DNA of 63,258 bases, counting the filler. It is 5 parts of 5 records of this genome, joined end to end, with 100 filler letters (N's around TTAATTAATTAA, not from the genome) between each part and the next. Parts side by side here need not be neighbours in the genome. Positions count along the whole stretch, not along the records: positions 46,775 to 63,258 come from SRR2962707_3585; 4 more parts are not named here. One strand, 5' to 3'. Every line of letters starts with the position of its first letter. Position 1 is the first letter of the stretch. The notes under the pieces are model-generated. The model saw only the letters and a program-made list of their open reading frames with translations, searched no databases and had not been told where the DNA came from. Positions 808 through 49,342 of the stretch are shown here, piece after piece. The position numbers and the translations under genes are program-made.

Positions 808-3800
808 ATGTACTCGAAAGTGTCTGCGGCCTTGCTCCTTCTCTGGCTGTGCTCATTGCAGTTCCATGGGTTGGTGCTCGCTTCCGTGCCGATCCATCGC
901 GAAGCAGGATTCAACCCTTTCCCCATTGATGACGATGAACTTCTTGCCGAGCTCGCACTTGGTGGTGGGCACAATAGCATCTCTCCGACCAAATCGGTCC
1001 GCTTGCGCGGCAGCGGTGCCGCCCACTTCAGTGTGGACGCACCAGTGGCCGACCATTGCTCTGCGGCGCGCAGATGTCGTGATTGCCTTCCTGTCATGGG
1101 ATGCGGCTGGTGCGCGGCGTCTCACACCTGCCAACGGGGAAACAACCGAGGCCCAACGTTGCAGCAGTGTCCACATGAACATTGGCAATTTTCAATGTGC
1201 GACAACAGGTGTGAAGAGCGTGGCGATTCCTGCCTTTCGTGCCTGCAGGCCCCTGATTGCAACTGGTGCGAGCGTGCCGATCAAACAGCAACGGGAAGTA
1301 CATCACCTCATTTATCTGGGTACTGCTTTGACGGCGGCTCCACGAACTGCACCGGTGACCACGACTTTGCAGTGATGGGCAGCACAGAAGGTGGCTCCCG
1401 ACTGCCCAAAATAAGTGCACAATGTGACGCCGCTGCGGCATGGGTCCCAGAGGATTTAGGGCGCCTCATGCGTTTTGCTCAACACCGCTCACAGAGTACG
1501 GCATCCATGATGGCAAAGTTGGAGGCGTCTGCTTCGTTTCAAGCCGAGCTCCGACACCAAGTCGAAGGTCAAGCTGGCGTCGATTCCAATGCTTTGATGG
1601 AAGCTGCGGCTGAGCAAAGCCGCGCTGCCGCTCAAGAGCACCTGCAAATTTACCTGCAGCTCGATGAGCACAAAACGCTCGCAGATCCCCCACAGTTCAG
1701 TCATGAGTCAAAAACGCACTTCATGGTGGCCCCGACCAACCACGAGCATGCGCCACCGCCGTCGCTGGCAGGCATTGCAAGTGTGGCACGAGTACCCCAC
1801 CAGGGATCCCATGGTGGTGATTCGGTGCATATTCTCGGCAGCGGGCGATCAGCGCGTGTGGAGGCGACAATCAGCGACGGCGTGCGCATGTACTTACAGA
1901 CAAGTGAACAGGAAGCGGCGGCGCCTCAATTTAGTCACGCCATGAAAACTCATTTCATGATGCCTCCTGGAAGTCGATCTCGCGCCCCACCTCCTTCGCT
2001 TGCCGGTCTGGCGCTGTCTGGGGACTCCCAGAGCAGCCTGCACGTGGAGCTTGGCTCTCGACACTTTGCTTCGCCGCCAGTGGACCCCGATGGAAACGCA
2101 GTGCAACCAGCCACGGCAGGCGGTTGCAAGGCGCCGTGTATGCCAGCCTGCTTGCCAACGTGTGTGAGTGCGGTTGAGACTGCCGCAAATACTGCGACCA
2201 GAGCTGCCCAACAGGTCGTGAAACCTTCGAGCTCACCGTTGGACCTGAAGCAACCGAATTCGGCTCCGACTGTTTGCGTGACAGCGTGCATGCCAGCGTG
2301 TGCAGCATCCTGCTTGTCGACTCAGCTTGTGGTGATGACGTCGGTTGTCGAGCCACATACGTTGGCTAAAGCCGCGGACGTAGATACTGATGGACCAGAC
2401 GTGGTTGTTTCCGGTGACACCGAAGCTCAGGCAATGTGCGCATCGCCGTGCATGCCAGACTGTAGTGAGTCTTGCCTCCTAAACCACCCACCAACTGATT
2501 ACGTTGCATCGGAGCATGTAGAACGTTCGGAGGCATCCCGCCGCGCTGGGGATGAGAGCCCAACATTCGCTGTGACGTTTCATGATGTACCTGCCTCTGT
2601 TGATGCTTCCATGGATGCAACTCTGGATGGGCACTCGCTGGTGAGGGTGCCATCGGAAGAGGAATCTAAAAGCGCATGGGAGCAGGCCACTGGAAAGCAT
2701 CGAAATCACTTTCATAGCCATCACCATCACCGAAAGCCCCGGCCCGTGACGATGGACCGATCTTCAAGTCTTGACGCACGGGAGGCAGCAGCGTCATACG
2801 TCGCCAAAAACTCCCAACTGCAGAGGTTATTCTCCCATCTGAAGAATGGCGTGGTTCCGGCTTCGCTTGTGTCTGCACCGAGCCCCGCCGGTGACACGAA
2901 CGGTGGGACTAACCCTGCAGCCTGGATTCACCAACGCCTTGAATTGGAGCTGGTGGACGCCATCGTCTCCTTAGCAGAGGCGCAAATCAGCATGCGCCGT
3001 CGCTTAATGCGCGATCTCGAGGACGCGGCAGCGGTTCACAATTTCGCTGGAATGGGACCGGGCCTCATGTGCCCTGGTTTTGTGAGTCCAGTTGCATCTG
3101 CACCAAAACTCTCGATGCCTTCAAGCACTTCTGCCGAGTCCCCACAAAATCTCCAGCATGTCTTGGCGCTTGGAGCTGCCGCTGGGAGCGGCCCTGCTGC
3201 ACCGCTGGCAGCGAGCCAGCACCGTCTGCCAGGGAGCTCAAGTGAAAGCCGCTCAACGCTCAATCTCGCAAGTTTTTTGGAGCTTGCTGTCGACAACGCG
3301 CAGAACCATATTGCAACGCCACCGGCTGTGTCCACCGTCCCGCCTTCCAGCAAAGAAGCACGGGCCAACGGAATTGCAAATGCCAGCGCTGTGGCTGGTG
3401 CCATGACAGTCACCGCTTTCGAGAATGATCTGCAGACGATCAAAATGCAACGCAAGCTTATCCAGCAACTAATTGAGAGTGGCGGAATTTCAGTGTTTGC
3501 TGGTAGCAACAGCAGCCAGGAGCGCAGCAGCGCCGATGCAACACCGTCGCCGAGTGCGGAAGTCGTGCGATGGCGGCAAGCGGTCCTGGATCACACGCGT
3601 GATGTCTTAACTCGTGCCAAGGATCGCCTCTCAGACGCAGCAACGATCGACGCGGAACGTCAGCACAACGATCGATCCACGAATCGGGTACGCGTGGAGC
3701 TGGCGTTGGCGGCTCTGACCAACTCTGTTACGTCAGCGGACAGCCGCTTGAAGCGAACTTTTGACTCTATCCTTGCCGCCACGATTGAGCAGGCTCGCTT

Positions 3801-46560: not shown

Positions 46561-46674
46561 ACCCCTCACCCGGCCCTCGTCCCGGGTTCTGGCCGGGACA
46601 TGCGCTACCCTCTCCCCAAGGAGAGGGGAAGTCGTGCGTGAGTTCCTTCTCCCTTGGGAGAAGGACAGGATGAG
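46561..46674. repeat. Inverted pair of CCCTCTCC/GGAGAGGG-type palindromic repeats, truncated by contig end
   Basis: CCCCTCACCC leader; hairpins CCCTCTCC-CCAA-GGAGAGGG (46608-46627) and CCTTCTCCC-TT-GGGAGAAGG (46645-46664); GGATGAG tail. Confidence 0.75.
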
Positions 46675-46774
46675 NNNNNNNNNNNNNNNNNNNNNNNNNN
46701 NNNNNNNNNNNNNNNNNNTTAATTAATTAANNNNNNNNNNNNNNNNNNNNNNNNNNNNNNNNNNNNNNNNNNNN
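46675..46774. other. Artificial contig linker
   Basis: 44 N + TTAATTAATTAA + 44 N. Confidence 0.98.
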
Positions 46775-46802
46775 GGTATTGCGCAGCAATGTCCCGAGAG
46801 GG
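46775..46802 (-). repeat. ~41-bp hairpin element, copy A (partial)
   Basis: CCTCTCGGGACATTGC-TGC-GCAATACC follows orfB codons LVHS, where DQG would be expected. Confidence 0.7.
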
Positions 46803-47185
46803 GGAGTGTACCAGAACTTTGTTCGTTGGTTTGCGCCTCGAAACAGCAATCAGCAGCGCCTGCAATACGAGGTCTGTTGGTTGTCGGCTTTGCATCGACC
46901 ACCCCACGATACGCCGTGAAAAGAGATGGATCACAACCACCAGATATGAGAACCCTTCATGTGTTTTAACGTAGGTAATATCTGTTACCCAGGCGCTGTT
47001 GGGGGCTTGGACATCGAATTGACGATCCAAAGTATTATCGACAACGACTGATGGCTTGCCACCATACTTGCCGGGTCGACGTTTGTATCCGATTTGCGCG
47101 TGTATCCCAGCCAATCTGGCCAGTCGGTCCACACGGTTTGGACAACACGTCTCACCCAGATCGCACAGATCGTCGTGCAGTTTGC

Positions 47186-47226
47186 TCCTCTCGGGACATT
47201 GCTTTGCAATGCCCTGACGGCCAGTG
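47186..47226 (+). repeat. ~41-bp hairpin element, copy B
   Basis: TCCTCTCGGGACATTGC-TTT-GCAATGCCCTGACGGCCAGTG; removing it restores GGC TAT CGC AAA CTG (GYRKL) in orfB. Confidence 0.8.
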
Positions 47227-47452
47227 GATAGCCGTAAATGTTGCCACACTCTTCCCAAGCTTCTTTGAGTAGCTTTGTCTGGCGCTCATCTTCCAGCGCC
47301 CGATGGCTTAACGGATTTTTAACCCACGCATAAAATCCACTTGGATGAAGGCACAGGCAACGACACATCGCGCGAACCGAAAACAACGGACGATGCTCGA
47401 CGATAAACGCGTACCTCACTTTACATCCCTGGCGAAGTACGCGGCTGCCTTC

Positions 47453-48748
47453 CTAAGAAACAGTCATGTTTGGTCTGTGCAGGTAATTCTTGCAAATCAT
47501 ACCCGAATGACTTGGCCCGTCGCTTGAGATTGCCGAGCACGCGATTGCGGTATCTTTCCTCATAATGGGGGACGCGCCGGGGTCTCGATAGGTCATGCCG
47601 TGGCGCAGGGTGTTGTAGAACAGGACCGCGATCTTGCGTGCTGTGGCTGTGACTGCTTTGGCCTTACCCGCGCGCGCGGACAGTCGGCGGTAGAAAGCAC
47701 CCAAAGCAGTGTCACTCCGCCCAATCGTGACGGCTGCCAATCGCAAGAGAGCTGCGGCGCGGCTGGATGATCGCCGTGTTCGGGATGATAACACCTTTCC
47801 TCCAGATATCTTGTTGCCCGGTGCCAGACGGAGCCATGACGTGAAGTGTTTAGCACTTAGCCATGCGCGCAAATCAGTGCCGCATTCGCCAACCAGCTTG
47901 AGCGACAGAGACCGGCCCATCCCATGGATTTGCGTCAAATCAACCCCGAGAACGCCAAACAGCGCGGCCCGCCCGCAGGTCAAACGAAGGCGTACTGACC
48001 TGCTTGGTCTTGGTGCGCGGGCGCGGCAACTTGCTGGGATCATATTCAGTGTCCGAGCCTAATCCCGCCAGTGTCGCCTCAAGATGACGATCACATTCCA
48101 GCACCTTGGCCTGATAGAAGTCATAGAGTTCGAGCGACTGGGTCAGCGCGAAGATGTGTTCGGGACGATCATTTCCATTGAGTGCAGCTTTGATTGTCTC
48201 AGTTGAAACCTTGCAACGCACGTCACGATAGGAGGCCAACACGTCCAAATCCCGTTCGCCGACGACGATGCCGCAGATGATCTTCATCCCCGTAATATCC
48301 GTGATGTCAGACACAACATGATGCAGTTGGAGGTTCACCTCCATTGGTGCTTTCTGCATGTGTTGAATGGGGGCCGCTGCATATTCCACCAACCGTTCAC
48401 GTTGGCGCAGATAGTCTCGCAAGGTCGCAATCTCGGCCGTTGGTCGAAAGCTGCCGCGTAGCGAGCGTTGACCAGAATGACCTCAAAGCCGTGCTGCTCA
48501 AGTATCTCGTAAGCTGGGATCCAGTACACACCGGTGGATTCCTTCGCAACGCTGGTCACACCGTGTGATTTAAACCAATCGGCCAAATCGTGCAGATCAT
48601 GCGTGAACGTGCCAAACGCACGCACCGGTGCATCCGTCACCTCTGGGTTTACAGCCGCCATGTGTTCGCGTGAACCGATATCAACGGCGGCAGCGCCAAT
48701 GTTCACAGTCTCAATCGTCGAGATCTTGTGGGTCTTTTGCTTCGCCAT
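47453..48748 (-). pseudogene. IS110 transposase, frameshifted with an internal deletion
   Basis: Split across track ORFs 48335-48769, 47940-48422 and 47453-48043. Jumps from VNARYA to RGSFRP near 48455, losing the KTDxxDA segment. Confidence 0.85.
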
Positions 48749-48771
48749 CTTCTGTCCTCCTGTTAGCAACA

Positions 48772-48927
48772 GAAGGGCGTGGGCTATGCAAATCCGTCAT
48801 CTTCCTAACCGGGATCACCGCAAGGCGGTGTCACCACTCTCAAGTTCGCATCAGCCCATGGACCACGTTTTTTAACGGGGTTCTGCCCAAAGACAGACCA
48901 CCAATAAGCGAACGGCCGCTGCCCTTC
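48772..48927 (-). ncRNA. Candidate IS110 bridge RNA
   Basis: Outer stem GAAGGGC/GCCCTTC encloses two stem-internal loop-stem modules; the loops contain TTAAAAAA (target match) and TTAGGAAG (element-end match). Confidence 0.7.
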
Positions 48928-49342
48928 ATAGCGCAACACTAGCACAGGCTGTTTCTACCGCGCACAGGCGGGCCACAACCCGGAACGGTTTTTAAGATAT
49001 CGCGCTCCTCAGAGACGCGGGCCAGTTCCTTCTTCAAGCGTCTGCTCTCCGCAGCCTGTTCGGCGGTCTCGTTGATCTGCTTGCGCGGCTGCGAAAAATG
49101 CGCCTTCCACGTGTACAGTGATTTGGTGCTGATCCCTAATCGCTCCGACACCTCAGCTACTGAATATCCGCGATCCACCACTTGGGCGACCGCATCACGC
49201 TTGAACTCATCCGTAAATCTAATCCCTGACATCACTGCCTCCTTGCTTCCAAAATTACCAAGCAAGGCGTCTAGGAAACTAGGGGCTATTCACTTTGCCG
49301 GTGCAGGAAAATTTCTGATACCCAAAGCTTTCGGCCTTTGAA

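Follow-up and report, generated by a model that had tools for sequence, protein, structure and literature searches.

Two described members of the IS110 family of insertion sequences (IS) come closest to the element considered here. The natural target of ISEc21, the nearest published case, is formed by the DDE codons of IS3-family transposases, and its upstream non-coding region encodes a seekRNA in which the top-strand match lies 3' of the bottom-strand match (Siddiquee et al. 2024, PMC11187229); the remark, in a preliminary description of the DNA studied here, that some IS110 elements specialize on other mobile DNA is thereby already in print. In IS621, the RNA loops pair with target and donor alike, with both strands of each and a 2-nucleotide (nt) core included (Durrant et al. 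2024, PMC11208160), and a later study describes weak bridge RNA expression from genomic IS621 copies together with "handshake" dinucleotides (Hiraizumi et al. 2026, PMC13626964). The stretch of DNA analyzed here, 63,258 nt long and called the window below, contains an IS110-family element of 1,537 base pairs (bp) on the minus strand at 47452 to 48988, which interrupts an IS3 element inside the run of A's of its A AAA AAG motif. This copy is dead and very probably represents a long-transposase subgroup (455 amino acids [aa]) that carries a guide RNA in its leader and whose active relatives are directed by that RNA into the IS3 frameshift motif. The recurrent, orientation-specific use of the IS3 frameshift site by this lineage is clear, and by it the lineage appears to live as a parasite of IS3 elements; that the use is RNA-guided is our reading.

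Recurrent insertion at the IS3 frameshift site

Both junctions can be read directly on the minus strand, the left one between 48989 and 48988 as ..GATATCTTAAAAA/CCGTTCC.. and the right one between 47452 and 47451 as ..TTCTTAGG/AAGGCAGCC.., with the slash marking the junction. These letters are identical to those of the preliminary description, which had also located the insertion correctly in the A-run, within slightly too wide limits (47440 to 48998) and with one shared A on rejoining, where the empty IS3 site and most copies give two. The insert matches the Pfam families DEDD_Tnp_IS110 (PF01548, 3.6e-09) and Transposase_20 (PF02371, 8.6e-11) in fragments that lie in three reading frames, and it has the layout of IS110 rather than IS1111, with a 240-nt non-coding leader upstream of the transposase gene. 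Only 2 nt (AA) are common to both flanks, and there is no real target duplication. The interrupted IS3 orfA occupies 48989 to 49232 (minus strand) and breaks off after ..EERDILK (HTH_Tnp_1 in Pfam, E value of 1.8e-16, and translation); past the insert the IS3 sequence continues with AAGGCAGCCGCGTACTTCGCC.. (K-A-A-A-Y-F-A) into an rve-domain orfB remnant, orfA tail and remnant together covering 46776 to 47451 on the same strand (rve in Pfam, E value of 8.3e-16; blastn to the IS3 of locus L016).

A single insertion could not show a preference, and a flank survey of homologs was run, in which 75 of the 84 assessable copies occupy the 3' end of an orfA of the IS3 family, as the window copy does, far more than chance would produce. 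A blastn search of plasmids with the element gave 252 records, and a profile scan of contigs, with one genome per species, gave 580 confirmed matches, the best 80 of which were kept; the flank tally comprises 87 copies, the window and 86 from other records, from Rhodobacterales, Bradyrhizobium, other Alphaproteobacteria and plasmids. At the DNA level, 401 genomes of the host family yielded only one weak match of 59 nt, and the element is absent from the nearest genome (G001). The first four plasmid copies, from Phaeobacter, Sulfitobacter, Sphingomonas and Pseudosulfitobacter, all share the arrangement ..GAGxGGGAxxTxTTAAAAAA/element/AAGSC... By regular expression, widened on the left flank to accept ..KAERDILK, IS3 frameshift-site sequence is found on both flanks of 55 copies, on one flank of 8 whose second flank is lost at a contig end, on one flank only of 10 (tandem pairs, deletions and further insertions) and on neither flank of 11, with 3 copies not assessable. 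Two of the 11 nevertheless sit in IS3 elements: L007 follows ..LLKK at the end of an orfA with HTH_Tnp_1, beyond which comes an HTH_32/rve gene (Pfam), and L076 was judged by eye to lie in an IS3 orfA. The element has the orientation of orfA in the 73 copies that the flank test assigns to IS3. Pfam finds HTH_Tnp_1 in 51 of 62 upstream translations and, among 79 downstream reading frames, HTH_21 in 54 and rve in 51, while at the nucleotide level the left flank ends in YTAAAAAA in 66 copies and the right flank begins with AAG or AAAG in 80.

The flanks themselves are diverse. Among 53 copies with 150 plus 150 nt of IS3 flank there are 19 clusters at ≥80% identity and 37 at ≥90%, and the lineage thus occupies at least 19 distinct IS3 types. 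Similar elements often have unrelated surroundings: the flanks lack detectable similarity in 2 of the 7 element pairs that are ≥95% identical and differ in 24 of the 43 pairs at 90 to 95%, and the element of L011 is 97.5% identical to those of L009 and L020 with no detectable similarity of the flanks. Because of these flank clusters and of similar elements with unrelated flanks, the element must have entered many different IS3 elements. It is improbable in the extreme that targeting played no part, with one ancient insertion copied as a composite (for instance by IS3 transposase acting in trans) and co-diverging with its host IS3. Element and flanks are indeed shared by L009 and L020, by L055 and L057 and by L008 and L010, and a split IS3 would presumably retain both ends and be mobile in trans in principle. 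Yet the near-identical elements in unrelated IS3 types, the 19 IS3 clusters, the existence of some insertions at non-IS3 look-alikes and an intact empty IS3 beside an occupied one in the same genome all stand against it, and to judge from these sequence comparisons a single inherited composite cannot explain the distribution.

That genome is the one of L052, which holds eight uninterrupted copies of GATATCCTAAAAAAGG. Aligned with two of its intact IS3 elements, the left flank of the occupied copy shows 97.4% identity and the right flank 99.7%, with an overlap of exactly 2 nt between the two alignments on the intact IS3. The empty site reads ..CCTAAAAAAGG.. and the occupied one ..CCTAAAAAA/IS/AAGG.., with AA common to both sides and a run of six A's when empty. 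In the intact IS3, orfA ends 11 codons past the motif and the -1 frame continues into an orfB with HHSDRGSQY; this arrangement, seen intact in G402, is by its sequence the usual IS3 frameshift window, and frameshifting itself would take place there by analogy with other IS3 elements.

More distant relatives occupy comparable sites. The Escherichia coli relative, with about 70% nucleotide identity over half of the query, is present as one copy in 155 of 5,426 complete genomes, and the one E. coli copy inspected interrupts an IS3-type element in the same register, at ..MENEILKK/ATALLMSD..; in Citrobacter, the single plasmid copy inspected keeps the IS3 left flank and has a rearranged right flank. 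In two Bradyrhizobium genomes, G404 and G402, distant relatives at 67 to 71% nucleotide identity (L122 and L125) are inverted in a T-run, ..CCTTCTAAAAAA/../AATCGTTCTCC.., on the opposite strand of GAT TTT TTA GAA. By Pfam the flanks of L122 belong to another IS3-family member (HTH_Tnp_1 and HTH_21) with the T-run near the end of orfA, and L125 has the same flanking sequence; the presence of a distant relative in an IS3 orfA of this type suggests that IS3-type targets have been retained repeatedly.

Two loci carry tandem IS110 copies, two per locus, at 3001 to 6213 of L003 and 2264 to 5513 of L048. Between the two copies lie the shared AA and 11 nt in L003, and 26 nt in L048, in each case a repeat of the final part of the left flank, and the tandems look like products of unequal exchange at a short look-alike of the right junction.

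A conserved leader with guide-like internal loops

The non-coding leader at the left end of the element (48749 to 48988, minus strand, 240 nt) lies upstream of the start codon, is conserved in relatives and is predicted to be a bridge or seek RNA gene. Aligned in 69 relatives it has a mean column identity of 69%, and RNAalifold folds its core (48772 to 48927, minus strand) into an outer stem around two stem-loops with one internal loop apiece. The 41 predicted pairs include 7 with compensatory double changes (for example columns 10/169, in 29 of 69 sequences), and many conserved G-U pairs would become A-C mismatches on the other strand; since these pairs fit this strand only, the predicted RNA has the sense of the transposase gene. 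No Rfam family corresponds to the leader, the sole match between 46000 and 50000 (whalefall-1, below threshold) lying outside the element. On this structural model the leader would encode a guide RNA of the bridge/seek type.

The candidate guides lie in the internal loops. On the 3' side of internal loop 1 (48867 to 48875, minus strand) the predicted left-target guide UUAAAAAAC is nearly invariant in relatives and agrees in sense with the left flank extended by the element's first base. The 5' side of the same loop, UUCGCUUAU (48904 to 48912, minus strand), contains GCUU, complementary to AAGC, that is, to the shared A's and the beginning of the right flank. Internal loop 2 carries on its 3' side (48801 to 48809, minus strand) the predicted right-end (donor) guide GUUAGGAAG, matching CTTAGG and AAG; as UUAGGAAG, the match of this side runs from the right end CTTAGG through the shared AA into the first base of the right flank. 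The idea that a TTAAAAAA guide aims the element at the slippery site, raised from the window sequence in the preliminary description, gains support here, with UUAAAAAA in an internal loop of the conserved leader structure. The extra C and G that follow the two predicted guides may correspond to the "handshake" positions described for IS621. The GCCUU of an apical hairpin, considered as a right-target guide, was dropped because this loop varies freely among relatives, and no guide sequence reaching into the IS3-specific flanks was found in the leader.

Natural variants change the loops together with the sequences that they are predicted to read. Across relatives the loop sequence matching the right end (UUAGGAA, UUGGGAA or UUCAGGAA) changes in step with that end of the element, with no clear match to the left end. 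In four copies from one Roseovarius metagenome bin (L022 to L025) the guide of loop 1 is UUGAAAAA and that of loop 2 is UUGGGAA (taken from the alignment for L024); their left flanks end in CTGAAAAA in three of four, the right end is CTTGGG in three of four (L022, L024 and L025), and all four lie outside IS3. In the E. coli and Citrobacter relatives UUCAGGAA goes with the right end CTCAGG, and the 5' side of loop 1 is GCCUUUU, complementary to AAAAGGC. The Roseovarius lineage has a single-base change in each guide-like loop; L014, from the same bin, has a mixture of old and new loop sequences, and L014 and L023 have had their right ends replaced by a similar foreign sequence.

We propose that in active relatives one internal loop of the RNA would pair with both strands of the target YTAAAAAA/AAGS and the other with the joined ends of an excised circle (..CTTAGG-AA-CYGT..), with the DEDD recombinase swapping strands at the shared AA. 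The target would be the A AAA AAG motif for -1 frameshifting (..I-L-K-K-A..) in the orfA/orfB overlap of many IS3-family elements. Because the target would be this motif, insertions would fall in IS3 copies and be oriented like orfA, and because the insertion parts orfA from orfB, the fused IS3 transposase would no longer be made. The junctions, the shared AA, the recurrence of site and orientation, the conserved RNA fold and the guide-like matches that covary in nature are seen in the sequences; RNA production, guiding by the RNA, the circular intermediate and any benefit to the element are inferred. The element might gain from a landing site that is neutral and present in many copies, from read-through transcription starting at the IS3 promoter, or from hitch-hiking.

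Breadth of the target and alternative explanations

An unlikely reading, though one to be taken seriously, is that the element aims at nothing beyond the short A-rich word YTAAAAAAG, with the excess in IS3 arising from the rarity of this word in GC-rich hosts, from the large share of its occurrences that IS3 copies supply and from selection against insertions elsewhere. Insertions do exist at look-alikes outside IS3 (L026, L059, L015 and L050), the leader holds no guide that we could find extending into IS3-specific sequence, and the hosts have just 4 to 16 motif sites per genome, fewer than a reversed-pattern control. In the five host genomes there are 16, 4, 9, 11 and 13 YTAAAAAAGS sites, with 8, 0, 0, 2 and 0 of them in an IS3-like context, so half of the sites in G402 (8 of 16) are in IS3. 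The close copies in these genomes, however, are in IS3 in 8 of 8 cases, against 10 of 53 unoccupied sites (one-sided Fisher test, p = 1.5e-5, a value to be taken as a guide only, copies and genomes not being fully independent), and because of this difference the short word alone does not explain the bias toward IS3. The same site is also occupied from Alphaproteobacteria to E. coli, and a distant relative, inverted, sits in another IS3-family orfA, both of which the short-word explanation accommodates poorly.

Stimulatory structures follow IS3 frameshift sites. Such a structure, for instance a stimulatory hairpin, or the transposase protein could in principle select the target, with the leader RNA having no guiding role; the unexplained part of the IS3 bias leaves scope for an additional layer, and for ISPpu10 a target stem-loop has been described, in a preprint, as giving specificity beyond RNA pairing (10.64898/2026.03.19.712850). 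We consider selection by protein or structure improbable as the sole determinant, since the guide-like loops change along with flank and right end in two independent variants and the published relatives require RNA (PMC11187229, PMC11208160). The ISPpu10 finding may nonetheless be a lead toward the part of the IS3 bias that the identified pairing leaves unexplained.

Several observations weigh against RNA guidance into the IS3 motif as the full account. The recognized sequence is seemingly just 10 to 11 nt, and 43 of the 53 free YTAAAAAAGS sites in the host genomes lie outside IS3 without a close copy in any of them; because these look-alikes stay unoccupied, either a factor beyond the identified pairing or selection after insertion must add to the bias. 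The element-free genome G001 holds 543 YTAAAAAAGS sites against 144 for the reversed-pattern control, an excess that we suspect to consist of terminator A-tracts read on the other strand. Nine of the 84 assessable copies are not in IS3 (L014, L015, L022 to L025, L026, L050 and L059); four of these still fit the guide, which speaks for it, the sites of L026 and L059 being exact and those of L015 and L050 having one mismatch. In the leader, the pairing of the 5' side of loop 1 is short (3 to 7 nt) and covaries only partly, AAGTC flanks (as opposed to AAGSC) going with 8 of 10 leaders of the GAUU/GACU type but also with 4 of the GCUU type. For the left end of the element (the right-donor side) the leader alignment revealed no convincing guide, and mutual information of the leader with the element's first 12 bases is dominated by clade structure and yields no usable left-end guide. 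The best 80 of 580 loci are a non-random sample with many short contigs, and the window copy itself, to judge from its damaged gene, cannot move.

A wider version of the RNA-guided reading would make this an old lineage, widespread from Alphaproteobacteria to E. coli and dedicated to parasitizing IS3, with its guide fixed on a heptamer that IS3 cannot change without losing both frameshifting and the LKK codons, and with a second determinant, maybe a DNA form of the structure that stimulates frameshifting, accounting for the unused look-alikes. We advance this version tentatively, at somewhat less than an even chance; the choice of a motif that IS3 can hardly give up may be an adaptation or may simply follow from the guide sequence. 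If it holds, IS3 would offer the element a multicopy, horizontally traveling and harmless landing pad with transcription from the IS3 promoter, and the element would act as a natural brake on the expansion of IS3.

The window copy and comparison with known elements

The element in the window (47452 to 48988, minus strand; junction reading and blastn, intact relatives having about 1,600 to 1,611 bp) is a degraded relic. Its transposase pseudogene, with DEDD and Transposase_20 parts (47453 to 48748, minus strand; Pfam, and tblastn with the intact 455-aa homolog P0010), begins with a start codon at 48748 (MAKQKT) and aligns with P0010 in four pieces, residues 1 to 98, 123 to 286, 287 to 418 and 419 to 447, the frame changing between pieces. 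Residues 99 to 122 are deleted near 48455 to 48461, which takes out the invariant D107 and D110 (alignment A1), two catalytic aspartates, and there are frameshifts near 47975 and 47570. The DEDD domain, whose match is on the first fragment, is therefore present but broken, and the Transposase_20 part keeps a ..GNKISGG.. stretch. Relative to an intact Phaeobacter plasmid copy the element is about 74 bp shorter and aligns by blastn at 87 to 90% identity in two pieces separated by a gap, and its left flank carries five A's, against six in most other copies, either because one A was lost from the run or because the run was mis-sequenced. It is the loss of D107 and D110, the missing ~74 bp, the frameshifts and the five-A left flank that identify this copy as a relic. 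A 15-nt inverted match (I3) between the right flank and the transposase deletion junction was set aside as being at chance level, with about one expected by rough arithmetic.

The ends of the element are simple. None of the 17 inverted pairs found joins both ends, and the element has no terminal inverted repeats. The transposase stop codon falls within the final 4 nt (region 47452 to 47460), and for this reason the right end seen by the second predicted guide is coding sequence (..V-S-stop). Inspection of the joined ends by eye, with no scan run, gave no convincing -35/-10 promoter pair.

The host IS3 in the window is decayed as well. We place the start codon of its interrupted orfA at about 49232, and its left end lies near 49292, the latter being only a reading; its right part is missing because of the contig break at 46675 to 46775, where an N run and a short linker, read from the sequence, are taken as a contig junction. 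Its orfB is broken by a 41-nt insert at 47184 to 47224, seen by blastn as a gap relative to the homologous IS3 of L016, the closest homolog, which has no counterpart to it. The 41-nt insert forms two hairpins and occurs in the window at 47184 to 47224 and at 46776 to 46808, and also at 2489 to 2531 of L132; 28 to 35 nt of it recur at 80 places in 49 plasmid records of the Roseobacter group, and in pDSHI04 of Dinoroseobacter an insert of this type interrupts an IS5-type transposase reading frame. Just ahead of the contig joint, a GC-rich palindrome at 46562 to 46629 gives a whalefall-1 match in Rfam that is below threshold (19.5 bits against a gathering value of 37, E value of 0.12); it is probably a terminator or a repeat.

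If RNA guidance is accepted, this lineage would be a second and much broader example of an RNA-guided insertion sequence whose natural target lies in the coding core of another, the target being the single short stretch that IS3 needs to produce its transposase by ribosomal frameshifting. It would allow one to study, in a natural setting, how so short a guide (about 10 nt) reaches high site fidelity when look-alike sites exist and go unused, and how mobile elements come into conflict, and its natural guide variants could serve to probe the programming rules of the long-transposase IS110 subgroup. It would also account for recurrent annotations of a broken IS3 plus an IS110 in many genomes, including those of E. 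coli. In the full-text literature searched we found no description of an IS110 insertion at an IS3 frameshift site, while the supplementary logos of PMC11187229, which cover >300 ISfinder entries, may already show this target.

The mechanism class is the known bridge/seek RNA recombination of IS110 elements. IS4321 and ISPa11, of the IS1111 family, resemble the present element in having a DEDD transposase and a fixed target in other repeated or mobile DNA (PMC11187229). They differ in belonging to another branch of the family, with a downstream non-coding region, subterminal repeats and targets that are not coding frameshift signals. The targets of IS4321 and IS5075 are transposon ends. The resemblance to IS621 lies in the DEDD recombinase and in a leader RNA whose two internal loops serve the target and the joined element ends, respectively, with the shared AA found here corresponding to the 2-nt core of target and donor in IS621; the order of the two target matches is mirrored, however, the 3' side of the loop here matching the left flank (PMC11208160), IS621 has a much shorter recombinase, and IS3 is not reported as its natural target. 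ISEc21 shares with the present element the IS110 type, the upstream non-coding region, the same strand order of target matches, a target in a conserved coding stretch inside IS3-family elements and the lack of real target duplication. Its transposase has 358 aa, in a cluster of 345 to 385 aa, against 455 aa here, which fits the 395 to 455 aa range of the subgroup that contains IS110 (PMC11187229), a placement made by size alone. Relative to ISEc21, the present lineage is thus set apart by its target, the frameshift heptamer, by its 455-aa subgroup and by its wide host range.

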